From an uncultured Bacilli bacterium (GTDB lineage: Bacteria > Bacillota_I > Bacilli_A > RF39 > UBA660): DNA of 64,000 nt. The stretch spans positions 13,191 through 77,190 of the forward strand of contig CANRCX010000004.1 of assembly GCA_947629235.1 (NCBI GenBank). The letters are read 5' to 3'. Position numbers and translations under genes: made by a program. The notes under the pieces were generated by a model. It was not told the DNA's origin, ran no database searches, and saw only the letters and a program-made list of their open reading frames with translations. This document shows positions 2,942-38,277 of this stretch, in pieces. Within the stretch, counting starts at the first letter, position 1. The number at the start of each line of letters is the position of its first letter.

Positions 2942-4228
2942 ATGATAGATATTAAACTTATAAGAGAAAATAGAGAAGTAGTAAAAGAAAATATTAAAAA
3001 GAAATTTCAAGATGAAAAATTACCTTTAGTAGATGAAGTATTTGAACTTGATAGAGAATATCGTGAATGTAAATCAAAAGGTGATAATTTAAGAAGTGAA
3101 AAAAATAATTTAAGTTCCAAAATTGGTGAACTTATGAGAAATAAAAAAGTAGATGAAGCTAATAAAATAAAAGAAAATGTTTCTAAAATGCAAGATGAGA
3201 TTACATCATTAGGAGAAAGAGAAGAAGAGTTAGAAGTTAAAATAAAAGAAATAATGATGGTTATTCCAAATATAATAGATGAAAGTGTACCAATTGGAAA
3301 AGATGATAGTGAAAATGTTGAAGTTGAAAAATTTGGTGAACCAATTGTTCCAAAGTATGAAATACCATATCATGCAGATATAATTGAAAGTTTAAATGGA
3401 ATGGATAAAGATGCAGCAGGAAGAACTAGTGGACAAGGATTTTATTATCTTCTTGGTGATATAGCTAGACTTCATGAAGCAATGATAGCGTATGCAAGAG
3501 ATTATATGATTGAAAAAGGATTTACTTATGCAATTCCACCATTTATGATTCATAGTGATGTAGTTACTGGTGTTATGTCTTTCCCTGAAATGGAAGCAAT
3601 GATGTATAAAATTGAAGGAGAAGATTTATATTTAATTGGAACTAGTGAACACTCAATGATAGGTAGATTTAAAGATCAAATGTTAAAGAAAGAAGATTTA
3701 CCAATTAGAATGACTTCATATTCACCATGTTTTAGAAAAGAAGGTGGATCTCATGGCTTAGAAGAAAGAGGTTTATATAGAGTTCATCAATTCGAGAAAC
3801 AAGAAATGATTGTTTTATGTGAACCAGAAGATTCAATGAAATATTATAATGATATGTGGAAATATACAGTAGAAGTATTTAGAAATATGGATATTCCTGT
3901 AAGACAACTTGAATGTTGTAGTGGAGATCTAGCTGACTTAAAAGTTAAATCATGTGATATTGAAGCATGGAGTCCAAGACAACAAAAATATTTTGAAGTA
4001 GGATCTTGTTCTAATTTAGGGGATGCACAAGCAAGAAGACTTTCTATTAGAGTAAAAGGTGAGAATGGTAATTATTATTTACATACACTAAATAATACAG
4101 TACTAGCATCTCCTCGTGGACTTATTGCTTTAATTGAAAACAATTATCAAGAAGATGGATCAATTAAAATACCAAAAGTATTACAACCATATATGGGTGG
4201 TAAAAAAGTCATTAAGAAAGAGAATTAG
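2942..4228 (+). CDS. serS: seryl-tRNA synthetase
   Basis: 428 aa. An N-terminal coiled-coil arm (MIDIKLIRENREVVKENIKKK) is followed by class II motifs (FRKEGGSHGLEERGLYRVHQFEKQE; GSCSNLGDAQARRL; LNNTVLASPRGLIALIENNYQ). Confidence 0.95.
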   Translation: MIDIKLIRENREVVKENIKKKFQDEKLPLVDEVFELDREYRECKSKGDNLRSEKNNLSSKIGELMRNKKVDEANKIKENVSKMQDEITSLGEREEELEVKIKEIMMVIPNIIDESVPIGKDDSENVEVEKFGEPIVPKYEIPYHADIIESLNGMDKDAAGRTSGQGFYYLLGDIARLHEAMIAYARDYMIEKGFTYAIPPFMIHSDVVTGVMSFPEMEAMMYKIEGEDLYLIGTSEHSMIGRFKDQMLKKEDLPIRMTSYSPCFRKEGGSHGLEERGLYRVHQFEKQEMIVLCEPEDSMKYYNDMWKYTVEVFRNMDIPVRQLECCSGDLADLKVKSCDIEAWSPRQQKYFEVGSCSNLGDAQARRLSIRVKGENGNYYLHTLNNTVLASPRGLIALIENNYQEDGSIKIPKVLQPYMGGKKVIKKEN

Positions 4229-4240
4229 TTCTCTTTTTTT
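4217..4240 (+). terminator. intrinsic terminator overlapping the serS stop codon
   Basis: AAAGAGAA (4217-4224), loop TTAG (contains the stop), TTCTCTTT (4229-4236), then a T-run. Confidence 0.6.
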
Positions 4241-4287
4241 ATTCTTTTTACTATGTTATAATTATTATAATATAGGAGAAGTACAAA

Positions 4288-5814
4288 ATGAAAAAGCTAT
4301 TAAAAAAAGAACAAATACTTTTAGAAATTTTATCAGATATTTATATTTTTACTTTAATAATTATTTTTCCATTAATAGTTAATAAAACTGGTTTCTTTCA
4401 TATATTGGAATGTAAATGGTATTCATTTGTACTTATCGCGACAACATATATTTTATTAAGCTTAATTATAGTATTATATTTTTTAATATTTAAAAAAGTA
4501 AATTATTTTAAAAAATATAAATTTTCTATTATACAGTATTTAGCTATTATATTTTTATTTGTAAATATTGTTTCTTGTTTTTTATCTCCTTTTTTAAATA
4601 AATATAATTTATTTATTGGAGTAGGTAGAGGTGAAGGATTAATAGTAACATCTTTATATATTTTATCTTTTTTATGTTTAACATTTTTTGCTAAATTTAA
4701 GAAAAAATATATTTTATATTTTTCTATTTCTTCAATACTTTTAAATTTAATAGCAATATTACAATATATTGGATTTAATCCATTTAATATGTATCAAAAT
4801 GGTATAGGAACTCATAATGTAAGTTTTATGACAACAATTGGTAATATAGATTTTATATCAGCAATGTATACAATATTATTAACTATATCATTTAGTTCAT
4901 TTATATTTTTAGAAGATAATAAAACATATGAAAAAATTATTCATTTATTATCAGTTTTAATGGGTTCATTTATATTTGGAATAATAAATGTTCAAAGTGG
5001 AAAAGTTGCATTTTTAGTAACATTAGTTATAATATTTCCATTTATAATTACAAATAATAAAAGACTATCTAGATTTTTAATTATGATATCAACAATATTA
5101 TTATCTTATTGTATAAATATAATTATTAATCCAGAATATCATTATGATTTAAATAAGTTAGGACTTTATTTTCAATTTAATTATTTAGTTATTTTATTTT
5201 TAATAGTATGTAGTTTATTAATATATTTATCTTATATATTAAAAAATACTAAATATGATTTTTCTAATAATAAAAAAATAATAAGAAACTTTTATATATT
5301 AATAGTATCTTGTATTTTAATTGTAATAGTTTCTTTATATTTTATTGATTTTAAAAGTGGTATTTTATATGAAGTTCATGAATTATTACATGGAAACTTT
5401 GATGATGAATTTGGTACATATAGAATATTTCTATGGAAAAGATCATTAAAATTAATATTAGACTATCCAATACTTGGAACAGGTCCTGATAGCTTTGCTG
5501 TTAGATTTATGGCTAAATATACTAATGATATTATGGCAATTGGTCCTTTAACAATAAATGATACAGCAGCTAATGTTTATTTAACAATGACTGTTAATTT
5601 AGGAATTATAGGTTTATTAAATTATTTATCATTCTTATTTTATAATTTAAAAGAAGGAATTAAAAATATAAATAAATATTCTGTTGTTTTATTAATCGCT
5701 ATTATTTGTTATATAACTCAAGATTTTTTCAATTTATCTGTAGTTATTGTAAGTCCATTATTTTGGGCATTGTTAGCTATTCATTATATTAGTTATAAGA
5801 ATAAAAATACTTGA
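4288..5814 (+). CDS. O-antigen ligase/polymerase (Wzy_C)-like polytopic membrane protein
   Basis: 508 aa with at least 10 hydrophobic segments. A large loop carries YRIFLWKRSLKLILDYPILGTGPDSFAVRF, which is the R..lW...l.....P.fG.G.gsF signature of the Wzy_C / O-antigen ligase family. Confidence 0.6.
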   Translation: MKKLLKKEQILLEILSDIYIFTLIIIFPLIVNKTGFFHILECKWYSFVLIATTYILLSLIIVLYFLIFKKVNYFKKYKFSIIQYLAIIFLFVNIVSCFLSPFLNKYNLFIGVGRGEGLIVTSLYILSFLCLTFFAKFKKKYILYFSISSILLNLIAILQYIGFNPFNMYQNGIGTHNVSFMTTIGNIDFISAMYTILLTISFSSFIFLEDNKTYEKIIHLLSVLMGSFIFGIINVQSGKVAFLVTLVIIFPFIITNNKRLSRFLIMISTILLSYCINIIINPEYHYDLNKLGLYFQFNYLVILFLIVCSLLIYLSYILKNTKYDFSNNKKIIRNFYILIVSCILIVIVSLYFIDFKSGILYEVHELLHGNFDDEFGTYRIFLWKRSLKLILDYPILGTGPDSFAVRFMAKYTNDIMAIGPLTINDTAANVYLTMTVNLGIIGLLNYLSFLFYNLKEGIKNINKYSVVLLIAIICYITQDFFNLSVVIVSPLFWALLAIHYISYKNKNT

Positions 5815-5867
5815 AAAATTAATCAATATAAGAGATAATTATTATTGTAGTAGGAGAGTGAAAAGTA

Positions 5868-7484
5868 GTGAATGATTATGAAAATAAAGTTTTAAAATAT
5901 ATATTAAGTGGTATTTTTATATTTGTTTTCGGAATATTTATAGGATATCAATTAGATAATAATGGAATTAAATCTATTCAAGGATATTTATTTAATTCTT
6001 TAACTAACGCGACTGATTCAAATGCAACAGATTCAAATGCTACTGATGCTAATGCTACTAATTCTAATGCTGAATGTTTTGATTGTGCAAATGCTAGTGA
6101 TGATGTAATATATTTAAGTGATTTTTATTTAAAAGATACTGAAGTAAAATCTGGTGATAGATTAAATTTAGTTGTTGACACTTGTGGTGCTACTATAAGA
6201 GAAATAGTAGTAACTTTTAAAGATTATAGTAATGATAATATATTTAATGCTAGAGTAAAAGCAATTAATACTGACCCATACATTGAAGTACCATACAATA
6301 TTTTTAGTGGTGAATATACAGTTAATGATGTTTTATTAATTGCTAATAATAGTGATGGAACAACATTTTCAAAACATTATAGTTATGATTCAGAAGATGA
6401 TGAATATTATTGGGATTTTTATTATGAGACAGTAACAATTACTGTTCCAGAAAATAAAGTTCATTTAATAAATACATTTAATATTAAAAGTACTAATGCA
6501 ATGGCAGGAGATAAAATTTATATAGATTATTCTTTATATGGATCTGAAAAATTAAAAAATTTATATTTAACTTTTGAAGAAATAAATAGTCATGATTCAT
6601 TTTCTACAACAGTAAATTCATTAGATAGTTCACCATATTTCTATATACCTTCTAATGTTAAAAAAGGAAATTATGTATTATCAGAAATACTTGCATTATC
6701 AGCACATAATTCAATTTATGAAGATATTGATAAATTTAGTTATTCTATAAATGTAAATGGTGTTAATAGTAATAGCTTATATTATAATCTTCAAGATTTA
6801 GATTCAAAAACTATATCAGAATTATATAAAAATGATACAGATATTATTGTAAATGAAGGAATAATTAAAAAAGATGTATTTAATGCTATTAAAGGTAAAA
6901 ATAAAAACTTAATAATTGAAAGCAATAATAATCAAATGGTATTTAATGGAAAAGATATAAAAAATGCAAAAGAAATAGATGCAGAATTTGAATCTACTAA
7001 TGTAAAAGATTTTCCTAATATAGAAAATCATGTTAAAAATGGTGTAGTTTTAAATTTTGTAAATAATGGTGATTTACCAGGAAAAGCAACTATAAGAATA
7101 AAATCAACTGATACTATAAGTTCAATTTTAGAAAATAAAAAAATATATGTATATTATTATAATGAAGATAGTGATAATTTCTGTATAATTGATTCAAATA
7201 TTAAATTAACAAAAGATGGATATTATGAATTTGAAATTACACATAATTCAAATTACTTATTAGTTAATTATAAATTAGATAGTTCTTTAGTTGTTGATAA
7301 TAATGTTGTAACATTTCAAAAAAGTAAATTAATTAATATAGCATTAATATTAGGTGGATTCTTACTAGCAGTTATTGTTATAGTAGTTATTATAATAATA
7401 CAAAAGAAAAATAAGAAAAAGAAACTTAATCCAGAAGAAACAAATAATGAAGTAAAAGAAGAAAAAAATAATACTTTAAATTAA
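5868..7484 (+). CDS. secreted/surface protein with N- and C-terminal membrane segments, function unknown
   Basis: GTG start 9 nt after AGGAGAG. It has an N-terminal TM segment (ILSGIFIFVFGIFIGY), a tandem NATDS repeat, and a C-terminal TM segment plus a basic tail (ALILGGFLLAVIVIVVIIIIQKKNKKKK). Confidence 0.6.
   Translation: MNDYENKVLKYILSGIFIFVFGIFIGYQLDNNGIKSIQGYLFNSLTNATDSNATDSNATDANATNSNAECFDCANASDDVIYLSDFYLKDTEVKSGDRLNLVVDTCGATIREIVVTFKDYSNDNIFNARVKAINTDPYIEVPYNIFSGEYTVNDVLLIANNSDGTTFSKHYSYDSEDDEYYWDFYYETVTITVPENKVHLINTFNIKSTNAMAGDKIYIDYSLYGSEKLKNLYLTFEEINSHDSFSTTVNSLDSSPYFYIPSNVKKGNYVLSEILALSAHNSIYEDIDKFSYSINVNGVNSNSLYYNLQDLDSKTISELYKNDTDIIVNEGIIKKDVFNAIKGKNKNLIIESNNNQMVFNGKDIKNAKEIDAEFESTNVKDFPNIENHVKNGVVLNFVNNGDLPGKATIRIKSTDTISSILENKKIYVYYYNEDSDNFCIIDSNIKLTKDGYYEFEITHNSNYLLVNYKLDSSLVVDNNVVTFQKSKLINIALILGGFLLAVIVIVVIIIIQKKNKKKKLNPEETNNEVKEEKNNTLN
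6006..6071 (+). repeat. 15-bp coding tandem repeat, about 4.4 copies, encoding N-A-T-D/N-S/A
   Basis: aac gcg act gat tca / aat gca aca gat tca / aat gct act gat gct / aat gct act aat tct / aat gct. Confidence 0.85.
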
Positions 7485-7488
7485 AGTG

Positions 7489-8088
7489 TTATTTTCTTTT
7501 ACAATATGAAATTATATAATTATCTATATCATTTATAAATCCACATTCAACAGTTTTATCACTACAATAAACTTTATTATTTTTAATTATAAATTCAACA
7601 CTAAAAATATTATTTAAATTTGTTCCTTTCATTTTAAAATAAGCTTCTTTTAATGTATATATTTGAAATAATCTCTTTTCTATATCATTATTACTTTTTA
7701 ATATATATTCTTTTTCTTTATTAGTAGCAAAATAATTAATAGTATTTAAATTAGTTTTTCTCACTTTTTCAATATCTATTCCAATTTCTTTATTTGATAC
7801 TATAGTTATAATATAATCAAATGAATGACTTATATTAAAATATATATCTTTATCTTTTATATAAGATTTACCATAATTATTATAATTAAAATCTAAATTA
7901 CTATAATTTAAATTATATAAATCTAAAAGTAAATCTTTTAATAATATTTCACCAATAATAGATAATAATTTTAATTTATTATTTTTATATTTATCTATTT
8001 TATCTTTTTTAAAATTATTTATTTTATTATAAAAACTTATTATTTCATCTTCATTATAATCATTAATTGTTTTGATTAAGTATTTCAA
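7489..8088 (-). CDS. Sfp-type 4'-phosphopantetheinyl transferase
   Basis: 199 aa with GIDIEKV and the LKEAYFKMKG (W/K-E-A-x-x-K) motifs. The length and two-lobe layout fit Sfp-class PPTases. Confidence 0.7.
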   Translation of the reverse strand: MKYLIKTINDYNEDEIISFYNKINNFKKDKIDKYKNNKLKLLSIIGEILLKDLLLDLYNLNYSNLDFNYNNYGKSYIKDKDIYFNISHSFDYIITIVSNKEIGIDIEKVRKTNLNTINYFATNKEKEYILKSNNDIEKRLFQIYTLKEAYFKMKGTNLNNIFSVEFIIKNNKVYCSDKTVECGFINDIDNYIISYCKRK

Positions 8089-8214
8089 TATAACACCTCT
8101 TATATAATTTAAATTAAAATTATTATTTGTGTCAATATTTTTAAATAAAATATTAAAAATAATATTAATATTTGATATAATAAATTTAATATATAGAAAG
8201 AAAGAGTAGTAAAT

Positions 8215-9087
8215 ATGAGTAGAAAACTTTTTTGTGATATTAGTCCAACAACTTATAAAATTTCAATGAAAAAAGAAATTATGTTAAGACACATAAAAGA
8301 TTTTTTTAGTAGAGAAAAAATAGCTAAAACAAAGTCTAAAAAGGAACTATCAAATATAGTTAAAAGTCACACCTCTATACTTATAAGAAAACTAGCAGGA
8401 GTAGATTTAAAATTACAAGAAAATAAAGTTACTAATATTATGATTGCTTGTAATAAAATTAATGGAATAATAGTTCATCCTGGAGAAACATTTTCATATT
8501 GGAAAGTAGTTGGTCCAACCGGTAAAAAATATGGATATAAAAAAGGATTAGTTATTGGAAGAAAAGGATTATCTTCTGATTATGGTGGTGGATTATGTCA
8601 AATGGCTAATATGATACATTATTTAGTATTAAATAGTCCATTAGAAGTAACTGAATTACATCATCATTCAGATGCATTATTTCCAGATGATAGAAGACGA
8701 GTACCATTTGGGACAGGGACATCTGTAACATATAATAATGTAGATTATAGATTTAAAAATAATACTGATCAAGATGTTCAAATTTTAGTTTGGTGTGAAG
8801 GTGGAGAATTATGTGGAGAATTAAGGAGTGAAAGACCTTTTCCATGTAGATATAAATTAATAGAAGAAAATCATCATTTTGCAAAAGAAAATAATAAATA
8901 TTATAGAATTTCTCAAGTATATAGAATAGTTATTGATAAAATGACAAATGAAGAATTATATAGAGAACTAATATTAGATAATCACTCAGAAGTTTTATAT
9001 GATTATTCATTAATACCTAAAGATCAAATAAGAGATGATAAAAATGATAGAAAAAATAAAAGAAATAGTAAAAAGAAATCCAAATAA
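8215..9087 (+). CDS. VanW-domain protein
   Basis: PGETFSYWKVVG...YGYKKGLVI...YGGGLCQMANMIHYLVLNSPLEVTELHHHS matches the VanW core (GGG-x-CQ ... H). It has a Lys-rich C-terminal tail. Confidence 0.75.
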   Translation: MSRKLFCDISPTTYKISMKKEIMLRHIKDFFSREKIAKTKSKKELSNIVKSHTSILIRKLAGVDLKLQENKVTNIMIACNKINGIIVHPGETFSYWKVVGPTGKKYGYKKGLVIGRKGLSSDYGGGLCQMANMIHYLVLNSPLEVTELHHHSDALFPDDRRRVPFGTGTSVTYNNVDYRFKNNTDQDVQILVWCEGGELCGELRSERPFPCRYKLIEENHHFAKENNKYYRISQVYRIVIDKMTNEELYRELILDNHSEVLYDYSLIPKDQIRDDKNDRKNKRNSKKKSK

Positions 9088-10438
9088 TATAGCATATAAA
9101 ATTAATAATGAAAGAATTACTTATAAAGAATTATGGAATAAAGCAACATACTATTCAGAATATTTAATTAATCAAGGAGTAGACCCTGTAATAATATATG
9201 GACATAAAAGTATTAGTATTTTGATATCTATATTATCTTGTATTATTTCTAATAGAACTTATATACCAATTGAAACATCTATGCCACTATATAGATTAAA
9301 AAAGATAATTAAAAGTACTAATACTTCTTTAATATTAACTGAAAATAAAATAAATTTAGATAATATATCTATTCATAATTTAAATGAATTAGAAAAATAT
9401 AAAATTCATAAAGACAAAAATAACAATAATAATATAGTTTATATAATTTTTACATCTGGTTCTAGTGGAGAAGCTAAAGGTGTACCTATAAGTAAAGATA
9501 ATTTAAATAATTTTATAAATTGGATTAGTAATTTAAAACCATTATGTGATTATAAAAATATTAATGTATTAAATCAAGCTAATTTTAATTTTGATTTGAG
9601 TGTTGCTGATTTATATTATTCATTATGTAATGGACATACATTAATATCATTTAATAGAGATAATAGTGAAGAAATATTTGATGTAATGAAAGAAATAAAT
9701 GTTGCAGTTATGACACCTACATTTATGAAATATTGTTTATTAAATGAAGAATTCAATGAAAAAAATTACAAAAAGTTTAAATGTGTATATTTTTGTGGTG
9801 AACAATTAGAAAAAAAATTAGTAAATAAGTTATTTTTACATTTTCCAAATTTAAAAATAATAAATGCATATGGACCAACAGAAGCAACAAGTGCAGTTTC
9901 TGCTATTAGAATTACAAAAGATATGTTAATAAATGAGAAAAAATTATTACCAGTAGGTGAAACTCAAACTTTTGCAACTAATATAGAAATTATAGATAAT
10001 GAAATAGTTTTAAAAGGAAAAAGTGTATTTAATGGTTATTTAAATAACTATACTCAAGGATATTATAAAGAAAATAATATTAATTGTTATAAAACAGGTG
10101 ATATTGGATATATAGAAAATAATAAATTATATTGTATAGGTAGAAAAGATAATCAAATTAAATATAAAGGATATAGAATTGAACTTGAAGATATTGAATA
10201 TAATATTAATTTAATAGATGAAGTAGAAGATTGTGCAGTAATAGCTAAATATAATGAAAATAATATTGTTAAAACAATAGTGGCATATGTTGTTTTAAAA
10301 AAAGATATTGATATAAAAATGAAATTAAAAAAATATTTACCAGATTATATGATACCAAAAACTATTAAAATAATTGATAAACTACCTGTTAATAAAAATG
10401 GTAAAATAGATAGAAGGGAATTAAGTAAATATGAATAA
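9035..10438 (+). CDS. dltA: D-alanine--D-alanyl-carrier-protein ligase-like adenylating enzyme
   Basis: It is collinear with my recollection of B. subtilis DltA: ITYKELWNKA, VIIYGHKSISILISIL, YIPIE, IFTSGSSGEAKGV, LNQANFNFDLSVADLY, YFCGE, NAYGPTEATSAV, TGD, GRKDNQIKYKGYRIELEDIE, NKNGKIDRR. The start may be 9035 or 9044, and either overlaps the vanW 3' end. Confidence 0.75.
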   Translation: MIKMIEKIKEIVKRNPNNIAYKINNERITYKELWNKATYYSEYLINQGVDPVIIYGHKSISILISILSCIISNRTYIPIETSMPLYRLKKIIKSTNTSLILTENKINLDNISIHNLNELEKYKIHKDKNNNNNIVYIIFTSGSSGEAKGVPISKDNLNNFINWISNLKPLCDYKNINVLNQANFNFDLSVADLYYSLCNGHTLISFNRDNSEEIFDVMKEINVAVMTPTFMKYCLLNEEFNEKNYKKFKCVYFCGEQLEKKLVNKLFLHFPNLKIINAYGPTEATSAVSAIRITKDMLINEKKLLPVGETQTFATNIEIIDNEIVLKGKSVFNGYLNNYTQGYYKENNINCYKTGDIGYIENNKLYCIGRKDNQIKYKGYRIELEDIEYNINLIDEVEDCAVIAKYNENNIVKTIVAYVVLKKDIDIKMKLKKYLPDYMIPKTIKIIDKLPVNKNGKIDRRELSKYE

Positions 10439-10661
10439 AATAGATGTCAAAAAATTATTATATGAAATATGTGAAGATAAAATGGTGTATGAAGATAATA
10501 TTGATTTAGTAGAAAGTGGATTATTAGATTCTTATGCATTTATAGAACTTTTTTCTAAATTAGAAGATGAAGGTATAAGTTTGCAACCAACAAGAATTGA
10601 TAGAACAAAATTAAGAACAGTTAAAGGTATTGAAGAATTAATAAATGAATTTAAAAAATAA
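10431..10661 (+). CDS. dltC: D-alanyl carrier protein-like
   Basis: 76 aa. ESGLLDSYAFIELFSKLEDEGIS parallels DltC EEGLLDSFGTVELLL (Ser is the Ppant site). An 8-nt overlap with dltA suggests translational coupling. Confidence 0.7.
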   Translation: MNKIDVKKLLYEICEDKMVYEDNIDLVESGLLDSYAFIELFSKLEDEGISLQPTRIDRTKLRTVKGIEELINEFKK

Positions 10662-10714
10662 TTGATTTTATTTCAATAGTAATATAAAATATATTTTTAC
10701 TAGGAGGGTTTTAA

Positions 10715-11932
10715 ATGAATATTGATGAAGATAGAATGACTTATGATTTAATGTGTGCTATTAGTGAGTTTGCATGTAGACCAACTAAAAATATGATAGT
10801 AAATGATTATGCATCTTTAATATTTTTAAATCAAGCACTAGCTAAATTATTTAATAAATATTTTGTAATAGATAATATAATTAAAGATTATCATAGAGCA
10901 CAAAAAATAAAAATAAGAGATAATCAAAACTCATTAAATAATTATTTAAATAATTTTTTTGAAAATAGAAAATTAATAAATGATATATCTACAAGCTATA
11001 TAAAGAATTTTGATGAAAAACAAATACAAAAATATCAATATTTTAAAAATTTAAGACATTATAGTAAACAAGATTTTATTGATGTAATTCTATCTTACTA
11101 TAGTACTTTTGGTAATAATATATATAATATTGTAAAAAAATATTTTGATGAAAATAGAATACAAACAGGATTTTCAATAAATGATTTAGAAAATTCAGGT
11201 GATGATTATTCTGGATTATATAGTTTTCTTACATTTTTACAAACAGGTTATATATTTGGTGAGCTTAGTGAATTAAGCACTATGAATGCTGGAATGTTAG
11301 TTCATGAACTAGGGCATGCAGTAGATTCTGAAACATTTATATTTCCACAACAAAAGAATATTAATATATTTGATGATTATTTATCAGAAATACCATCATT
11401 AACATTTGAATTTGGTTTTTATGATTATTTAGAAAAAAATCATATTGATATAATTGGTAGTAATATAATGAAAAATTTAAATTATATTAATTATTATTCA
11501 TGGTTTAAAGTATTAAATTATGCATCATCTCTAAAAGAAATGATTATTAATACAGATGGAGATATAGAAATACCACAAGAAGAAATTGATTCAATAAATA
11601 AAATGATAGCTGATATAATTGATATTACTATTTATGAAGATGGTGAAGGTAATGTTTTAGATCAAGAATGTGTTATTCGTTTAAGAGACTCAATTATATA
11701 TGCATTAGGTGGATACTTTGCAAGACATTTAAGTTTAATGATGAATGAAGATAATAAAGAATTTTTAAAAATATTTAATAATATTATTACATCTAGAAAA
11801 GAAGCAACATTTGAAGAAATAATTGAAAGAGCAGGTATTAATTTAGAAGACTTTATAAGTGGTAAATTAATTTATCCTAAAATTGATGAAGACACTTTAG
11901 TACTTAAAAATAGATTTGAGAAGAAGATATAA
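10715..11932 (+). CDS. HExxH zinc metallopeptidase, M3B (PepF)-like catalytic region
   Basis: MLVHELGHAVDSE is followed about 25 residues later by YLSEIPSLTFE, which fits the HExxH ... E third-ligand arrangement of M3 peptidases. It lacks the long N-terminal half of PepF. Confidence 0.45.
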   Translation: MNIDEDRMTYDLMCAISEFACRPTKNMIVNDYASLIFLNQALAKLFNKYFVIDNIIKDYHRAQKIKIRDNQNSLNNYLNNFFENRKLINDISTSYIKNFDEKQIQKYQYFKNLRHYSKQDFIDVILSYYSTFGNNIYNIVKKYFDENRIQTGFSINDLENSGDDYSGLYSFLTFLQTGYIFGELSELSTMNAGMLVHELGHAVDSETFIFPQQKNINIFDDYLSEIPSLTFEFGFYDYLEKNHIDIIGSNIMKNLNYINYYSWFKVLNYASSLKEMIINTDGDIEIPQEEIDSINKMIADIIDITIYEDGEGNVLDQECVIRLRDSIIYALGGYFARHLSLMMNEDNKEFLKIFNNIITSRKEATFEEIIERAGINLEDFISGKLIYPKIDEDTLVLKNRFEKKI

Positions 11933-23411: not shown

Positions 23412-24914
23412 ATGTATAATGTAGTAGATTATTTAGAAAATACAACTAAAAAATATGGTAATAAAATAGCTATTATAGAAGAGAATAATAAAATAACTTA
23501 TAATGATTTTAACAAATATTCTAAAGTAGTAGGATCATTTATAGGAAGTATAGTATTTAATGAACCAATTATAATATTTATGGATAAGGGAATAGATGCT
23601 TTAATTTCATTTTTTGGATGTATTTATGCAGGATGCTTTTATACTCTTATAAATCCAGAGCTTCCTAGTGTTAGAATAGATCATATTAAAGATACAATTA
23701 AATCTAAAATAGTAATTACTGATGATGAAAATTATGAATTAGCAAAAACTTATTTTAGTGATTTAACTATTAAAAAAATTAGTGAATTAAAAAAAGGTAA
23801 AATAAATAGTGAAATACTTGATAAATGTTATAGAAATCATATTGATACAGATCCTTTATATGTAAATTTCACATCAGGTTCTACTGGAGTACCAAAAGGA
23901 GTGGTAATATCACATAAAAGTGTAATTGATTTTATAGATGAATTTACAAAAACATTTAAGTTTAATAAAAATGATATAATTGCAAATCAAGCTCCATTTG
24001 ATTTTGATGTTTCGGTAAAAGACATTTATTCAAGTATAAAAGTAGGAGCTACATTATTAATTGTACCTAAGAAATATTTTTCAAATCCATCTTTGCTTTT
24101 AGATTATTTGTGTGATAATAAAGTTACTACTATGACTTGGGCTGTGTCGGCACTTTGTTTAATTACAACTTTTCATGGACTTGATTATAAGGTTCCAGAA
24201 ACTGTAAATAAAATATTATTTAGTGGTGAGGTAATGCCTTTAAAACATTTAAATATATGGATGCAACATTTACCAAAAACAAAGTTTGTAAATGTATATG
24301 GACCTACTGAAATAACATGTAATTGCCTATATCATATAGTTGATAGAAAAAGAGATTATAAAGATAAATTACCAGTAGGATTTCCTTTTAAAAATGAAAG
24401 AGTATTTTTATTAAATGATAAAGACGAAATAATAAAAGACAAAGATATTGTTGGTGAAATATGTGTATCAGGAACTTGTGTAGGACTTGGATACTATAAT
24501 AATACTGAATCTACAAATAAAAGTTTTACTAAAAATCCAAATAATTCTAGTTATAGAGAAACAATATATAGAACAGGTGATTTAGGATATTATAATAACT
24601 TAGGTGAAATAATGTTTAATGGTAGAAAAGATTTTCAAATTAAATATTTGGGTCATAGAATAGAACTAGAAGAAATAGAAAAATCAATGATGGATATTGA
24701 TGAAGTAAATCGTGGATGTGTAATATTTGATGAAGAAAAATCTAAATTATATGGGTTTTATATAGGAAATATAGATAGAAAAAATTTAAGTATTAAATTA
24801 AAAGAAACTTTACCAGTATTTATGATACCAACGAAACTTATACAATTAAATGAATTTCCACTTACTAAAAATGGAAAAATTGATAGAAAAAAATTAATGG
24901 GTGATTACAAATGA
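23412..24914 (+). CDS. stand-alone amino-acid adenylation enzyme (DltA/NRPS A-domain type)
   Basis: 500 aa with FTSGSTGVPKGV, NQAPFDFDVSVKDIY, FSGE, VYGPTEITC, YRTGDLG, GRKDFQIKYLGHRIELEEIE and TKNGKIDRKKL. Confidence 0.85.
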   Translation: MYNVVDYLENTTKKYGNKIAIIEENNKITYNDFNKYSKVVGSFIGSIVFNEPIIIFMDKGIDALISFFGCIYAGCFYTLINPELPSVRIDHIKDTIKSKIVITDDENYELAKTYFSDLTIKKISELKKGKINSEILDKCYRNHIDTDPLYVNFTSGSTGVPKGVVISHKSVIDFIDEFTKTFKFNKNDIIANQAPFDFDVSVKDIYSSIKVGATLLIVPKKYFSNPSLLLDYLCDNKVTTMTWAVSALCLITTFHGLDYKVPETVNKILFSGEVMPLKHLNIWMQHLPKTKFVNVYGPTEITCNCLYHIVDRKRDYKDKLPVGFPFKNERVFLLNDKDEIIKDKDIVGEICVSGTCVGLGYYNNTESTNKSFTKNPNNSSYRETIYRTGDLGYYNNLGEIMFNGRKDFQIKYLGHRIELEEIEKSMMDIDEVNRGCVIFDEEKSKLYGFYIGNIDRKNLSIKLKETLPVFMIPTKLIQLNEFPLTKNGKIDRKKLMGDYK

Positions 24915-26080
24915 ATTATGAAGAAATAGTTAAAAAATATAAAACACCATTATTTATATATAATATTGATACTTTAATTGATAGAATAAATTATTTAAAA
25001 AGTAAACTTACAGATAAATATGATTTAGTATATGCAGTAAAAGCAAATACATTTATAGCAAAATCTATAGAAAAATATGTATCTAGATATGAAATATGTA
25101 GTAATGGAGAATTTAATATATGTAATAATCTTAATATTGCTCATAATAAAATGGTTATATCTGGTGTTAATAAAGATTATGATTCAATTGATAATATGAT
25201 TAAAAACTATGATATATTAAAATATACTATTGAATCTATTAATCAATTTAAATTATTAACTGAATTATCTAAAAAGTATAATAAACAAATACATGTATTA
25301 ATAAGACTTACAAGTAATAATCAATTTGGTGTAAGTGAAGATGATTTTAAATGTATATTAAAAAATATAGATAATAATTATTTGTTATTAGATGGTATTG
25401 AATACTTTTCTGGTACTCAAAAAACAAAATTAGAAAGAATAGAAAAAGAAATAGATTATTTAATAGAATTTACAAATAATATTGAAAATGAATTTAATAT
25501 AAACATTAATGAAATAGAATATGGAGTAGGTCTTCCTGTTTACTATTACCAAGGAGATACATTTAATGAAGATGAATTTTTAGATAAAGTTAAAACAATT
25601 TTAGATAAAATAACAAATAAAAAAGTAGTATTAGAACTTGGAAGAAGTATAGCTTCTTCTTGTGGAAGTTATTTAACAAGTGTAGTAGATATGAAAACAA
25701 GTAAATATGGAAATTATGTAATAGTAGATGGTGGGATAAATCATTTAGTATATTATGGTCAAACAATGGCTATGAAAATACCATATTATGAATTATTACC
25801 TAAAGTAAAAACAAAAGATGAAGAAACTTATAATATATGCGGTTCTCTTTGTACTATAAATGATTTTCTAGTTAAAAATATTAAAACAAGAAAGTTAAAT
25901 ATTAATGATATATTTGTATTTAAAAATACAGGTGCTTATTCAAGTACAGAAGGAATTAATTTATTTTTAAGTAGAGATTTACCTAAAATAGTATTAATAG
26001 AAAATAATAAATGTAAATTAGTTAGAAAAGATATTAAAACAAGTGATATAAATTTTCCAAATTATGATATAAAGGAGTGA
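24911..26080 (+). CDS. fold-type III PLP-dependent decarboxylase (Orn/DAP/Arg decarboxylase family)
   Basis: TPLFIYNIDTL...YAVKAN (PLP lysine), EYFSGTQ, DGGINHL, and ICGSLCTINDFL (active-site Cys). The ATGA overlap with the adenylation gene suggests translational coupling. Confidence 0.75.
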   Translation: MNYEEIVKKYKTPLFIYNIDTLIDRINYLKSKLTDKYDLVYAVKANTFIAKSIEKYVSRYEICSNGEFNICNNLNIAHNKMVISGVNKDYDSIDNMIKNYDILKYTIESINQFKLLTELSKKYNKQIHVLIRLTSNNQFGVSEDDFKCILKNIDNNYLLLDGIEYFSGTQKTKLERIEKEIDYLIEFTNNIENEFNININEIEYGVGLPVYYYQGDTFNEDEFLDKVKTILDKITNKKVVLELGRSIASSCGSYLTSVVDMKTSKYGNYVIVDGGINHLVYYGQTMAMKIPYYELLPKVKTKDEETYNICGSLCTINDFLVKNIKTRKLNINDIFVFKNTGAYSSTEGINLFLSRDLPKIVLIENNKCKLVRKDIKTSDINFPNYDIKE

Positions 26081-26087
26081 AGTAAAA

Positions 26088-26318
26088 ATGGAAAAATTAA
26101 TTGAAATATTAGAAGGATTAAATCCAGAAGTAGACTTTAAAACATGTAATGATTTAGTAGATGGAAGACACTTAGATTCTCTTAGTATATTATCACTTAT
26201 TAGTGAAATAGAAAGTGAATTTGATGTAGTAATACCAACTGTAGAAATAATACCAGAAAACTTTAATTCTGCTAAAAAAATATGGGAGCTAATAGAAAGA
26301 TTAGAAGAAGATAACTAA
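26088..26318 (+). CDS. acyl/peptidyl carrier protein
   Basis: 76 aa and acidic. It carries the GRHLDSLSILSLISEIE phosphopantetheine-attachment motif (DSL). Confidence 0.8.
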   Translation: MEKLIEILEGLNPEVDFKTCNDLVDGRHLDSLSILSLISEIESEFDVVIPTVEIIPENFNSAKKIWELIERLEEDN

Positions 26319-27880
26319 TGTCATACTTCTCATTAAAATATTTATTAGTATTTTTATTAGCTATAGTAGTTGTATATATTTTTACACCTAAAAAATTAAA
26401 AAGATTATTATTACTTCTAGCAAGTTATGCTTTATTTTTAAAAGTTAGTAAAAAGCTAGTAATATATTTATTATTATCAACACTATCTATTTATATATCT
26501 GGTTTATTATTTAAAAAAATAGATGATAAAAGAAATATAAAAATAAAAGGTGTTGATAAAGAAAAAAGAAAAGAAATTAAAGAGAAATATAAATCTAAAA
26601 AGAAAATAATTTTGATTTGCTGTATTCTTTTTAATGTGTCTTTTTTATTTATATTTAAATATTTAACTTTCTTTACTAATATAATTAATATAATATTTAG
26701 TAGTGATATAAAGGTATTAAAATTATTAGCTCCAATGGGAATATCTTTTTATACTCTAAGTGCATTATCATATTTAATTGATGTATATAATGAAAAACAA
26801 GAAGCAGAAAAAAATATAGTAAAAATAATGTTATATTTATCATTCTTTCCAACTATACTTGAAGGTCCTATACTAAAATATAGTGATGTTAAAGATGAAT
26901 TTGAAAAGAAATCAAAAGTAACATATAAAAATTTTTGTTTTGGAGTTCAACGAATTCTTTATGGACTTTTTAAAAAATTCTTAATCGCAGATAGACTTAA
27001 TATGTTTGTAAAACTTGTTTTTGATAATTATACAAATTATAATGGTTCAACAATATTATTAGGTGCATTATTCTATACAATATTACTTTATATGGAATTT
27101 TCTGGAACAATGGATGTAGTAATAGGATCAGCAGAAATTTTTGATATAAAATTACCTGAGAATTTTAAACAACCATTCTTTTCAAAAAATATATCTGAAT
27201 TTTGGTCAAGATGGCATATTACATTAGGATTATGGTTTAAAAATTATATATTTTATCCTGTATCATTATCAAAACCAGTTAAAAAATTAACAACATTTTT
27301 AAGAAATAAAATAAATGCAAGATTTTCAGTAATTGTAATGAGTGCAATATCTTTATTTGCAGTATGGTCATTAAATGGATTATGGCATGGAGCAGGATTT
27401 ACTTATATTGCATTTGGATATTATCATTTTATATTAATATTACTTGGAAATATATTTGAACCATTAATAGTAAAAATATTAAATAAATTAAAAATATCTA
27501 GACAAAATAAAGTATATAAATTTTTACAAATAATTAAGACATCATTCTTAGTAGTATTAGGTGAGTTAATATTTAGAGCTAAAGATTTAACTACCGCGAT
27601 AGGTATGTTAAAAAGTATATTTACAAACTTTAATATTACTAAAATAAATTTCTTATTAGGAATGGATAGTAAAGATTATATAGTATTAATTATATCAATT
27701 ATAATTGTATTTATAATTAGCATATTAAAAGAGAAAAATATTAATGTAAGAGAAAAAATAAGTGAAAAACATATAGTAATTAGATGGATAATTTATTATG
27801 CATTAATTCTTGGCATTATAGTATTTGGTGCTTATGGACCTGGATATGATCCAGTAGAACCAATATATGCAGATTTTTAG
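26318..27880 (+). CDS. MBOAT-family membrane O-acyltransferase (DltB/AlgI-like)
   Basis: 520 aa and polytopic. It has FWSRWHITLGLWFKNYIFYPV with the invariant MBOAT His. The start shares a base with the carrier-protein stop (TAATG). Confidence 0.85.
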   Translation: MSYFSLKYLLVFLLAIVVVYIFTPKKLKRLLLLLASYALFLKVSKKLVIYLLLSTLSIYISGLLFKKIDDKRNIKIKGVDKEKRKEIKEKYKSKKKIILICCILFNVSFLFIFKYLTFFTNIINIIFSSDIKVLKLLAPMGISFYTLSALSYLIDVYNEKQEAEKNIVKIMLYLSFFPTILEGPILKYSDVKDEFEKKSKVTYKNFCFGVQRILYGLFKKFLIADRLNMFVKLVFDNYTNYNGSTILLGALFYTILLYMEFSGTMDVVIGSAEIFDIKLPENFKQPFFSKNISEFWSRWHITLGLWFKNYIFYPVSLSKPVKKLTTFLRNKINARFSVIVMSAISLFAVWSLNGLWHGAGFTYIAFGYYHFILILLGNIFEPLIVKILNKLKISRQNKVYKFLQIIKTSFLVVLGELIFRAKDLTTAIGMLKSIFTNFNITKINFLLGMDSKDYIVLIISIIIVFIISILKEKNINVREKISEKHIVIRWIIYYALILGIIVFGAYGPGYDPVEPIYADF

Positions 27881-27888
27881 GTGAGTGT

Positions 27889-28833
27889 ATGAAAAACGTA
27901 TTAAAAAGTATAATATTTATGACAATATTATTAATTTTATATGAAATTATATCATATTCATTAATTACAAATAAAGAAAATATAGAAAAATATGGTATAA
28001 GAGTAGTATCTAATAATGCAATATTAACTGAAGAAAAAAATACTATTGATGTAGTAGCAATAGGGGATAGTTTAATTTATTCATCTATTTCTCCAATGAT
28101 AATATGGAATAATTATGGATATACTGTATTTGATCTTGCATCTGCTGCTCAAGTAATAAATGATTCATATAAAGATTTAGAGTATGCAGTTGATACACAA
28201 AATCCAAAAGTAGTTATATTTGAAGCAGATGTTTTATTTAGAAATCCTAAAAAAGTACCATGGTATTATAAATTTACAAAATTAGAAAATTATTTTTCTT
28301 TATTCAATCATCATAATAATTGGAAAATATATTTATTTAATTTTTTAAAAACTGATACAACAAATAATATATTTAAAGGATTTAAATATATAAATAAGAC
28401 TGTATCAGCAAAAGAAAAAGATTATATGAAAAAAACGGATAAAAAGACAAAAATACCAGAAAATAATATTAAATATTTTGAAGAAATGAAAAAAATATGT
28501 GATGAAAATAATATAAAATTAATTATTATGAGTTTTCCAAATATGAGAAGATGGAACTATTCAAAACATGAAGCAACTTTAGAATTATCAAAAAAATATA
28601 ATTTAGAATTTATTGATTTTAATACAGAAACAGATATATTAAATATAGATTGGAAAACTGAATCAAGAGATGGTGGTGGTCACTTAAATTATGTTGGTGC
28701 TACTAAAGCTTCTAATTATGTAGGGGAATATTTGAAAAAAAATAATCTTGTAGAAGATCATAGAAAAGATAGTAAATATAATAGTTGGAATGAAGCTTAT
28801 AAACAATATGAATATAAATTAAAAAATAATTAA
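27889..28833 (+). CDS. membrane-anchored DltD/SGNH-like protein
   Basis: N-terminal TM segment. VVAIGDSLIYSSISP is the GDS block I. The C-terminal SRDGGGHLNYVGA is the D-x-x-H block V. Its position after the MBOAT matches dltD. Confidence 0.65.
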   Translation: MKNVLKSIIFMTILLILYEIISYSLITNKENIEKYGIRVVSNNAILTEEKNTIDVVAIGDSLIYSSISPMIIWNNYGYTVFDLASAAQVINDSYKDLEYAVDTQNPKVVIFEADVLFRNPKKVPWYYKFTKLENYFSLFNHHNNWKIYLFNFLKTDTTNNIFKGFKYINKTVSAKEKDYMKKTDKKTKIPENNIKYFEEMKKICDENNIKLIIMSFPNMRRWNYSKHEATLELSKKYNLEFIDFNTETDILNIDWKTESRDGGGHLNYVGATKASNYVGEYLKKNNLVEDHRKDSKYNSWNEAYKQYEYKLKNN

Positions 28834-29175
28834 TACTGAAGATATAGCATAATCTTTATCATGAGATATAGAAACAGATATATTTTTGATTTCTATATCT
28901 TTTTTTATATCATTATGTAAAACTATATAAGGATCACTATTTTCATTATGCAATACTTCTATATCTTTAATATTATAGTCATTAATACCTTTTTTAATAG
29001 ATTTTAAAAAAGCTTCTTTACTTGCATATATTCCAGCAATAGTATCTAACTTATTTTTATTTTTAGAATTAATATATTCTATTTCATTTAAAGTAAAACA
29101 TCTATTCATAAAATTTTCATTATTAATAAGTTTTTCAAATCTTTTTATATAAACAATATCTATTCCATTTGACAT
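28819..29175 (-). CDS. acpS: holo-[acyl-carrier-protein] synthase (AcpS-type PPTase)
   Basis: 118 aa with GIDIVYIKRF, YASKEAFLKS and ISISHDKDYA. Its 3' end overlaps the convergent DltD-like gene by 15 nt. Confidence 0.8.
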   Translation of the reverse strand: MSNGIDIVYIKRFEKLINNENFMNRCFTLNEIEYINSKNKNKLDTIAGIYASKEAFLKSIKKGINDYNIKDIEVLHNENSDPYIVLHNDIKKDIEIKNISVSISHDKDYAISSVLIIF

Positions 29176-35823: not shown

Positions 35824-37203
35824 ATGATATTTTCTAGTATAACATTTATATATTATTTTTTACCAATTTTATTACTAATATATTTTATAGTATCAAGTAA
35901 ATACAAAAATCTAGTATTACTATTTTTTAGTTTATTATTTTATTTTTTAGGAGAGCCTAAATATATAATAATATTAATACTATCTTGTATTATTAATTAT
36001 TATATAAGTAAACTAATAGAAAAAAGAAAACACAAAAAATTATATTTAATTATCGGACTTACTTATAACATATTACAATTATTAATATTTAAATATACTG
36101 ATTTTTTCATATCAAATATAAATACAATATTTAAAACAAATTTTAGTTATTTATATTTAGTAATGCCTATAGGAATAAGTTTTTTTACATTTCAAGCAAT
36201 TAGTTATATAGTAGATGTGTATAATAAAAAACATAAAAGTGCAGATACTTTAATTACATTTATGACTTATTTATGCTTATTTCCACAGTTGATTGCAGGA
36301 CCAATAGTAAGATATAGTAATGTAGAAAAAGAATTAAAAAGTAGAACTCATACATTTGATAAAACAAGTGAAGGAATTAAAAGATTTATAATAGGTTTAT
36401 CTAAAAAAGTATTACTTGCTAATGTATTAGGTGAATTTTCAAAATCAATAATTACTGAAACAGTAGTATCTTCTTGGTTAAAACCAATTAGTTTTACACT
36501 ACAAATATATTTTGATTTTAGTGGATACTCAGATATGGCAATTGGACTTGGATTAATATTTGGATTTAGATTCTTAGAAAACTTTAATTACCCATTAATA
36601 GCATCTTCAATCACAGATTTTTGGAGAAGATGGCATATATCACTATCATCTTGGTTTAGAGATTATGTATATATACCATTAGGAGGAAATAGAGTAAGTA
36701 AATTAAAATGGATAAGAAATATATTTATAGTATGGTTTTTAACAGGATTTTGGCATGGAGATAGTTGGAATTTTATAATATGGGGACTTTATTTTGGAGT
36801 ATTACTAATAATTGAAAAATTATTCTTAGGTAAACATTTAGAAAAAACTAAAATATTCAAATATATTTACACAAGTATTATAGTTATAATTAGTTTTCTA
36901 ATATTTAATTCAAATAGTGTAAGTGAAATATTTATAAGTTTAAAAAATATGTTTTTCCTAAATAATATTCCATTTATTAATAATGAAACAATATATTATT
37001 TAAAAAGTTATTTAATCATATTTATAATATCTATATTTTCAGCAACACCATTACTTAAAAACATAATAAAGAAACTTTCAAATACTAAATTTAAAAACAT
37101 TATAAATATTTTAGAAGTAATAACATTAATAACTTTACTTACTATAACTACTGCATTTTTAATAGATGAATCATTTAATCCATTTTTATATTTTATATTT
37201 TAA
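35824..37203 (+). CDS. MBOAT-family membrane O-acyltransferase (AlgI/DltB-like)
   Basis: 459 aa and polytopic, with FWRRWHISLSSWFRDYVYIPLGGNR and WHG. Confidence 0.85.
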   Translation: MIFSSITFIYYFLPILLLIYFIVSSKYKNLVLLFFSLLFYFLGEPKYIIILILSCIINYYISKLIEKRKHKKLYLIIGLTYNILQLLIFKYTDFFISNINTIFKTNFSYLYLVMPIGISFFTFQAISYIVDVYNKKHKSADTLITFMTYLCLFPQLIAGPIVRYSNVEKELKSRTHTFDKTSEGIKRFIIGLSKKVLLANVLGEFSKSIITETVVSSWLKPISFTLQIYFDFSGYSDMAIGLGLIFGFRFLENFNYPLIASSITDFWRRWHISLSSWFRDYVYIPLGGNRVSKLKWIRNIFIVWFLTGFWHGDSWNFIIWGLYFGVLLIIEKLFLGKHLEKTKIFKYIYTSIIVIISFLIFNSNSVSEIFISLKNMFFLNNIPFINNETIYYLKSYLIIFIISIFSATPLLKNIIKKLSNTKFKNIINILEVITLITLLTITTAFLIDESFNPFLYFIF

Positions 37204-37212
37204 GGAGAACTT

Positions 37213-38277
37213 ATGAAAAATAAAATTATAACAATTATATTTATAATTTATATATTTACTTTTTCAATACTTGGAATAGTTTTAAAAGATGAACTTATTA
37301 GTAAAAGTGAAAGAAGAAAATTAAAAACATTTCCAGAATTTACTTTTACAAGTGAATATATTACTAATTTAGATAAATACTTTTTAGATCATTTTCCATA
37401 TAGAGATAATTTTAGAAGTTTAAAAGCAAATTTAAATTATAAAATATTTAGAAAATTAGATAATAATAGTATTTATTTAAAAGATAATTATATATTTAAA
37501 TCAAACTATCCAACAAACATGGATTCAATAAAATATTTTATAGATAAAACAAATGAAGTAAAAGATAAATTTAGTGAAAATAATAATGTTTATATGTTAA
37601 TTATTCCTGATAAAAATTATTATTTAAAAGATAAAGATTTCTTACAAATAGATTATGATTATATTTATAATGAAATAAATAAATTAAATATTAATAACAT
37701 TGATATTAGAAATATAATGAATTTAAATGATTATTATGAAACAGATACCCATTGGAAACAAGAAAATTTAGATAAAGTAGTAAAAGAAATTACAAATAAA
37801 ATGAATTTATCTTATGAAAATATTAATTATAAAAAGAATACTTTTAATAATTTTTATGGTGTTTATTATGGAGAGTCAGCAATTAATAGAAGTCCTGAGA
37901 GTCTTACATATTTAACTAATGAAACTATTGATAATTCAAATGTATATTATTTAGAAAATGATACTTTAAATAAAGTTTATAACAAAGATAAATTAAATAA
38001 TTTAGATAGTTATGATGTTTATTTAGATGGCGCTAGTGCTTATATTGAAATATATAATGAAAATGCAAGTAGTGATAGAGAACTTATAATATTTAGAGAT
38101 TCATTTGGAAGTAGTTTAACACCACTTCTAATTAATTATTATAAAAAGATTACTATTATTGATAATAGATATATAAATAGTGATAATTATTTAAATTATG
38201 TTAATTTTACTAATCAAGATATATTATTTTTATATAGTACACTTATAGTAAATAATAGTTATACATTAAAAGGATAG
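37213..38277 (+). CDS. DHHW-family (AlgX/AlgJ-like SGNH) protein
   Basis: N-terminal TM segment, YYETDTHWKQEN (the D-x-H-W motif, here DTHW) and FRDSFGSSL. It lies directly after the MBOAT gene. Confidence 0.65.
   Translation: MKNKIITIIFIIYIFTFSILGIVLKDELISKSERRKLKTFPEFTFTSEYITNLDKYFLDHFPYRDNFRSLKANLNYKIFRKLDNNSIYLKDNYIFKSNYPTNMDSIKYFIDKTNEVKDKFSENNNVYMLIIPDKNYYLKDKDFLQIDYDYIYNEINKLNINNIDIRNIMNLNDYYETDTHWKQENLDKVVKEITNKMNLSYENINYKKNTFNNFYGVYYGESAINRSPESLTYLTNETIDNSNVYYLENDTLNKVYNKDKLNNLDSYDVYLDGASAYIEIYNENASSDRELIIFRDSFGSSLTPLLINYYKKITIIDNRYINSDNYLNYVNFTNQDILFLYSTLIVNNSYTLKG

Follow-up and report, generated by a model that had tools for sequence, protein, structure and literature searches.

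What does a pair of genes resembling dltA and dltC do when neither dltB nor dltD follows it? The question is raised by a 64,000-nucleotide (nt) stretch of DNA from an uncultured Bacilli bacterium (assembly GCA_947629235.1, contig CANRCX010000004.1, positions 13,191 to 77,190), hereafter the window, in which genes for an adenylase and a carrier protein lie downstream of a gene for a short VanW-domain protein and opposite a gene for an Sfp-type phosphopantetheinyl transferase (PPTase). The initial annotation handled the VanW gene as a chance overlapping neighbour of a textbook DltA-DltC pair; the evidence makes VanW a core partner. We regard it as about an even call that the locus stands apart from the Dlt pathway, as a self-contained cassette for aminoacyl transfer that is horizontally mobile and in which VanW moves the carrier-bound group to an acceptor. 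The source genome (1.43 Mb in 64 contigs, 91.7% complete) carries cell-wall and sporulation genes, including those for penicillin-binding proteins, MurA, SpoIIR and SpoIID, and the G+C content of the window is 20-25%. The features of the cassette are as follows.

7489-8088, minus strand: Sfp-type PPTase, 199 aa (PF01648, 45.9 bits; AASDHPPT_N PF22624, 30.5 bits)
8089-8214: divergent intergenic region, 126 bp, with a promoter-like site and a ribosome-binding site for VanW
8215-9087, plus strand: short-form VanW-domain protein, 290 aa (PF04294, 135 bits)
9035-10438 (start possibly 9044), plus strand: stand-alone DltA-like adenylase, an AMP-binding enzyme of 467 aa (top NCBIfam match DltA)
10431-10661, plus strand: DltC-like carrier, 76 aa (top match DltC), with the phosphopantetheine attachment serine in GLLDS

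A conserved and co-inherited gene set

The adenylase gene starts inside the 3' end of the VanW gene, as had been described, with an overlap of 53 nt if translation begins at the ATG at 9035 or 44 nt if it begins at 9044, the latter being the start of a database protein (P0001) that is 100% identical to the adenylase. The carrier is translationally coupled to the adenylase through an 8-nt gene overlap. The initial annotation called the pair fused to the VanW gene; VanW and adenylase only overlap here, and a true fusion is found elsewhere, in a natural VanW::adenylase protein of 744 aa (P0067) that belongs to one lineage and is present in two independent assemblies. The PPTase gene is divergent across the 126-bp spacer as reported, and a promoter-like site with an extended -10 element lies at 8153-8181, between PPTase and VanW. 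Because the DNA is so AT-rich, this match is not significant alone (the promoter scan gave 114 matches against 101 expected), and a terminator scan found none, which is uninformative in this 20% G+C DNA since its criteria require G-C pairs.

The same arrangement recurs widely. Species-representative genomes, metagenome contigs and assemblies yielded 97 loci, and gene order after VanW was counted in the 64 that extend 1750 nt or more downstream. VanW is followed by the adenylase in 63 of these 64 loci and by adenylase plus carrier in 62, with VanW/adenylase overlaps most commonly of 53, 8 or 4 nt. Over 58 complete triples, pairwise identity averages 70% in VanW, against 59% in the carrier and 50% in the adenylase, and the distance matrices of VanW and adenylase correlate with r = 0.86. 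VanW, adenylase and carrier therefore travel as one conserved, co-inherited and translationally coupled unit in which VanW is the most constrained member. A PPTase homologue lies divergently next to VanW in 30 of the 69 loci with enough upstream sequence. No further gene recurs broadly beside the cassette across the 97 loci, and an MBOAT gene is adjacent in none of them.

Adenylase homologues with 56-70% identity are plentiful in metagenomes. According to database records, the hosts of the cassette are Oscillospiraceae, Acutalibacteraceae, Peptococcaceae, Clostridium, unclassified Bacilli and Bacillales, and one Treponema metagenome-assembled genome; the gut of horses, sheep, goats and humans is among the sources. 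The cassette is widespread in gut Firmicutes and apparently undescribed, and a literature search returned no paper linking VanW with DltA or with carrier proteins.

Within the genus of the source organism the cassette is present in 2 of 19 genomes, and in the window it lies in an accessory region.

4229-10714: accessory insertion, 6.4 kb, between serS (2942-4228) and a genus-core HExxH gene (10715-11932)

These bounds define an insertion because in cassette-free relatives, G014 (L183) and G024 (L182), serS directly adjoins the HExxH gene and the genes for a 259-aa protein and an ATP-grasp protein that come with it. The insertion holds a Wzy_C-like gene, a gene with N-A-S/T repeats, and the PPTase, VanW, adenylase and carrier genes, and its junctions show neither direct repeats nor mobility genes. 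In G026, the other cassette-bearing genome of the genus, the four-gene module occupies a different chromosomal site.

Two minor variants were seen among the collected loci. At L171 (7938-8831) a cassette-type VanW with 65% identity, located in G+C-rich DNA beside an integrase-like gene, is the sole example that has no adenylase and carrier after it. In 4 of the 97 loci (L100 9662-10486 and three others) a membrane protein of the TraX family, the family of the F-pilin N-acetylase, is encoded directly after the carrier gene, where it could be a lineage-specific membrane acceptor step. TraX was rejected as a regular partner of the cassette, given that it follows the carrier in these four loci only and is absent from the source genome.

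The adenylase, carrier, PPTase and VanW proteins

The motifs quoted by the initial annotation for the adenylase and carrier (ITYKELWNKA, YGH, YIPIE, LNQANFNFDLSVADLY, NAYGPTEATSAV and ESGLLDSYAFIEL) were all found, and these are the most DltA- and DltC-like proteins of the genome. The description as a canonical pair does not hold, as both fall below the NCBIfam cut-offs. The adenylase scores 398.3 bits on TIGR01734 (cut-off 559.85) and 410.1 bits on PRK04813 (cut-off 476), and the carrier reaches 28.9 bits where the DltC model requires 68, so that neither attains its equivalog score. When aligned with cassette carriers and canonical DltC, the carrier retains the LLDS serine and a general resemblance to DltC. 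A genome-wide search for further dlt genes, as the initial annotation had proposed, gave no DltA or DltB scoring above cut-off and zero matches to DltD (PF04914), a model that matched the B. subtilis and L. lactis controls. The adenylase phylogeny was also run: in a maximum-likelihood tree the VanW-linked adenylases form a single clade (support 100/98), separate from MBOAT-linked DltA and from the second adenylase of the window.

The substrate pocket was compared between 62 unique cassette adenylases and 42 canonical DltA proteins at the D-alanine (D-Ala) contact residues of B. cereus DltA, which with their roles were taken from PMC8972799 (D196/197, L197, M200, C268, T297 and V301); C268 is the residue that excludes L-Ala and serves as the gate for D-enantiomers (PMC8972799). 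Four of the six positions, the contacts with the amino group in DltA among them, are retained in the cassette enzymes, with D196, L197 and C268 at 100% and T297 at 95%. Two are altered: M200 is replaced by Ala in 82%, and V301 gives way to Ser (77%) or Cys (23%), with no Val in any sequence, compared with V301 in 42 of 42 canonical DltA proteins. The catalytic A10 lysine is present in the adenylase (NGKIDR), and the cassette adenylases are ~45 residues shorter than the canonical DltAs compared. Judged from these residues, the substrate would be a small D-amino acid, possibly other than D-Ala.

The cassette resembles the Dlt system of teichoic-acid D-alanylation (DltA, DltC, DltB, DltD and DltX) in the retained pocket residues and in that a stand-alone DltA-superfamily adenylase would load an LLDS carrier of ~76-80 aa. 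It differs in the shorter adenylase of its own clade with changes at M200 and V301, in the lack of an MBOAT (DltB), DltD and DltX, in having a predicted cytoplasmic VanW as partner, in having an Sfp-type PPTase and not AcpS, and in being accessory and mobile. To our knowledge, carrier-protein-dependent D-alanylation is known only via the DltB/DltD membrane relay; here the candidate transferase linked to DltA-type activation is a different one, predicted to be cytoplasmic.

The two-domain layout of the Sfp-type PPTase was confirmed, with PF22624 and PF01648 together in 199 aa, and its top NCBIfam match is of the AusB/HetI type. The only other PPTase of the genome is an AcpS at 28819-29175 on the minus strand, beside the second carrier cluster of the window. 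The Sfp-type enzyme probably primes the cassette carrier.

Bollinger et al. (PNAS 2024, PMC11348318) showed that VanW domains are the catalytic domains of L,D-transpeptidases. Catalysis there depends on a conserved Cys with His and Asp and a thioacyl intermediate is inferred by the authors, the characterised enzymes being the membrane-anchored, extracellular Ldt4 and Ldt5 of C. difficile. The cassette VanW shares with these PF04294 and a conserved catalytic Cys and His, together with a presumed thioacyl enzyme intermediate. Ldt4 and Ldt5, as that source describes them, carry PG4 and G5 domains and act on wall tetrapeptide stems outside the cell; the cassette VanW differs in being a soluble protein of 290 aa that lacks an export signal and is either coupled to an adenylase or fused with one. 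Alignment and Pfam searches found no signal peptide, transmembrane or hydrophobic helix, or PG4 domain in it. Its N-terminus reads MxRKLFC, its C-terminal tail is lysine-rich, and it is predicted to be cytoplasmic. Across the aligned cassette VanWs, C128 (in GGGLCQ), H150/H151, D153, D158 and R161/R162 are invariant; residues 153, 158 and 177 are the candidate aspartates.

The closer architectural match is the VanW of vanB and vanG operons, which has the same short, stand-alone form. The vanW-gen model aligns with the cassette VanW over its full length, and C128, H151 and D177 are common to it and E. faecium VanW-B. The two differ in sequence (27% identity, with a vanW-gen score of 186.5 bits that lies below the family cut-off of 365) and in partners, which are an adenylase and a carrier and not VanH, VanB, VanX and VanY; no van genes are nearby. 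We know of no function assigned to the short VanW of van operons.

About 313 clusters at 50% identity match a short-form VanW profile at E <= 1e-30. The nearest relatives of the cassette VanW outside the cassette are HAD-phosphatase::VanW fusions, which represent a second, independent fusion to a cytoplasmic enzyme and so also point to a cytoplasmic location. Such proteins, with a VanW part ~50% identical and an N-terminal phosphatase of the YqeG/PGP type, include P0244, P0247 and one on Staphylococcus warneri plasmid NZ_CP054016.1 (L096 5452-6816); the plasmid copy is bordered by copies of IS257.

An AlphaFold2 model of the cassette VanW was of moderate confidence, with a predicted local distance difference test score (pLDDT) of 76.8 and a predicted template modelling score (pTM) of 0.77. 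Foldseek comparison of the model with the PDB returned no match at E <= 0.001, and a PDB sequence search likewise returned none, in agreement with the published statement that the VanW fold is new; neither search gave an analogue for the mechanism.

A proposed transfer reaction and its alternatives

We infer a reaction in four steps. The PPTase would prime the carrier, and the adenylase would attach a small D-amino acid to it in thioester linkage, either D-Ala or a slightly larger or more polar residue such as D-Ser. Cys128 of VanW would then receive the aminoacyl group by transthioesterification, a step that would parallel the thioacyl intermediate put forward for L,D-transpeptidases of the VanW type. 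Finally, VanW would hand the group to a nucleophile. This is probably an amine on a cell-envelope precursor in the cytoplasm, for example on a peptidoglycan stem peptide or an amino sugar. Acyltransferases with a Cys-His-Asp triad and thioester donors include the transglutaminase-like AdmF of andrimid biosynthesis, which transfers an acyl group from its carrier thioester to an amine, and the arylamine N-acetyltransferases. The ping-pong course proposed here, from phosphopantetheine thioester to active-site Cys to amine, would be like theirs; the folds are unrelated and no homology was detected, so that the analogy is one of mechanism only. The cassette suggests that a small amino acid can be joined to a target in the cell by a route not described before.

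Several points weigh against this proposal. The active-site loop of the VanW model, residues 152-175, is of low confidence, and the geometry of the triad is for that reason putative. A D-aminoacyl donor is unlike that of known L,D-transpeptidases, in which the donor carbonyl belongs to an L-centre. No gene related to an acceptor accompanies the cassette consistently, and because the pocket of the adenylase is changed its substrate may not be D-Ala. We know of no biochemistry for any short-form VanW. In PMC11348318, four proteins were without L,D-transpeptidase activity, and the enterococcal short-form VanW may have been one of them.

The proposal can be generalised, although we consider the general form improbable: short-form cytoplasmic VanWs may constitute a new class of carrier-protein-dependent aminoacyl transferases, in which a DltA-derived ligase activates the D-amino acid and the transferase joins it to a cell-envelope precursor in the cytoplasm. 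Targets could then be a side-chain or terminal amine of the stem peptide of UDP-MurNAc or lipid II, or an amino sugar of a lipid-linked glycan. The conserved, sometimes fused adenylase and carrier make it a testable idea that short VanWs accept an acyl group from a thioester. If this is true, wall precursors could be branched or edited in a third way, beside tRNA-dependent Fem transferases and ATP-grasp ligases, and there would be a first mechanistic handle on the VanW of vanB and vanG resistance operons. With four genes the cassette is small; it is common in gut and rumen Firmicutes and amenable to in vitro reconstitution. The catalytic role of VanW domains itself dates from 2024 and covers extracellular forms only (PMC11348318).

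The alternative that survives best dispenses with an envelope target. In a route like that of a nonribosomal peptide synthetase (NRPS), the adenylase, carrier and PPTase would still form an aminoacyl thioester, and VanW would act as a stand-alone condensation or release catalyst to give a diffusible aminoacyl amide or ester that serves as a metabolite or signal. Sfp-type PPTases are typical of secondary metabolism, and one adjoins the cassette in the 30 of 69 loci noted above; a membrane partner is missing in most loci, and the patchy, accessory distribution, with different sites in the two cassette genomes of the genus, would suit such a pathway. Nevertheless, across the 97 loci no other gene for biosynthesis, tailoring, export or immunity is repeatedly found next to the cassette, and no condensation or thioesterase domain was found in any neighbouring gene. 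The adenylase and carrier derive from the DltA/DltC lineage and not from NRPS modules, and demonstrated VanW chemistry is solely on peptidoglycan stems. We consider this route unlikely.

We are also doubtful, to a similar or slightly greater degree, that VanW is not a transferase at all and acts either as an L,D-carboxypeptidase that supplies D-Ala from recycled tetrapeptides or as a proofreader that hydrolyses the loaded carrier, leaving the acceptor step to an unlinked enzyme. Ldt4 and Ldt5 have a carboxypeptidase activity that sets D-Ala free (PMC11348318), and the VanW::adenylase fusion would fit substrate channelling equally well. Yet VanW is the slowest-evolving member of the cassette, which would be unusual for an accessory editing enzyme, and both versions would need a conserved unlinked partner. 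None was found, with DltB, Wzy_C and TraX each absent from many cassette genomes.

The initial annotation offered two outcomes for the pair, that it feeds one of the MBOAT/SGNH pairs of the window (26318-28833 or 35824-38277) or that it serves a different acceptor. The recurrence of a self-contained VanW-adenylase-carrier cassette with no adjacent MBOAT supports the latter. In the former case the Dlt pathway would be split, with D-Ala passed in trans to one of these MBOAT/SGNH-like pairs or to that on contig C3. The DltA- and DltC-like character of the adenylase and carrier speaks for a split pathway, as do two MBOATs that lack an adenylase and carrier of their own. The distribution of the genes is not in its support. 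A DltB-like MBOAT (E <= 1e-5) is absent from 3 of 11 cassette genomes, one of which is a single 2.63-Mb chromosome. Conversely, MBOATs occur in 13 of the 18 other genomes of the genus, of which 17 are without the cassette, and the one that has it, G026, gives a single, weak MBOAT match of 42 bits. Neither the cassette nor the MBOATs therefore need the other. Together with the absence of DltD, the lack of an adjacent MBOAT at any locus and the arrival of the cassette by insertion, this leaves a split pathway largely refuted and, in our estimation, very improbable.

That the pair is a decaying dltA/dltC duplicate, as the scores below the DltA and DltC cut-offs and the shortened adenylase might suggest, has a negligible probability and is already refuted by conservation: every core motif is intact, as is the A10 lysine, the genes have open reading frames, strong conservation extends over hundreds of orthologues, and the genome has no complete, canonical dlt operon as the original copy.

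Other genes of the insertion and the window

No dltB or dltD comes after the carrier gene, in line with the initial annotation, and the next genes encode an HExxH protein of 405 aa that matches no Pfam family, a 259-aa protein that weakly matches YlxY/deacetylase and a protein with a weak ATPgrasp_ST match. The cassette was inserted between serS and the HExxH gene, and these three genes are therefore not part of it; they were rejected as cassette members, being genus-core genes that adjoin serS in cassette-free relatives. The HExxH protein (10715-11932) is present in 17 of 18 other genomes of the genus and in 0 of 12 outside it. Its family is often found in tandem copies, with up to ~5 consecutive matches on contig C16 of G023.

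The insertion also contains two genes upstream of the cassette.

4288-5814, plus strand: Wzy_C/O-antigen-ligase-like membrane protein (Wzy_C, 50.9 bits)
5868-7484, plus strand: repeat protein, 538 aa, with N- and C-terminal transmembrane helices and x-x-N-A-S/T pentapeptides repeated in tandem

The repeats are constant only in N-A-S/T, an Asn-X-Ser/Thr sequon, and are retained in related loci though the remainder of the protein is 33-51% identical; a conserved IQGYLFN motif and a basic tail after the C-terminal transmembrane helix are further features. The two genes always occur together in related loci, and the pair looks like a glycoprotein beside its own oligosaccharyltransferase or ligase. 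Of 38 loci with 4.5 kb or more of upstream sequence, 13 have it together with the PPTase-VanW-adenylase-carrier set, and it is missing from 9 of 11 cassette genomes. As obligatory partners the Wzy_C and repeat proteins were accordingly rejected, and they are better described as an optional co-traveller. A reading of the island as a defence system was dropped because PADLOC models gave no match for any of its six proteins.

The MBOAT genes lie at three sites.

23412-29175: second complete Dlt-like cluster, encoding a 500-aa adenylase, a pyridoxal phosphate (PLP) enzyme, a carrier, a 520-aa MBOAT and a 314-aa protein
35824-38277, and contig C3 (L008 7033-9610): two more MBOAT genes with no adenylase or carrier of their own

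At the latter two sites, one MBOAT gene is followed by a gene for a DHHW protein and the other comes after one for a weakly matching AlgX-like SGNH protein. An MBOAT beside a DHHW or AlgX-like partner is the typical layout of carrier-independent O-acetylation systems, and these are probably carrier-independent O-acetylation pairs. The MBOAT of the second cluster (26318-27880) comes with its own adenylase, carrier and PLP enzyme. Both kinds of arrangement speak against supply of these MBOATs by the cassette. This adenylase forms a clade of its own, the PLP enzyme is ornithine/diaminopimelate-decarboxylase-like, and the 314-aa protein has no Pfam match. The presence of the PLP enzyme suggests that the group loaded in this cluster is other than plain D-Ala. 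The convergent AcpS gene (28819-29175) overlaps the end of the cluster, and similar clusters are also present in Lachnospiraceae loci L077 and L093.

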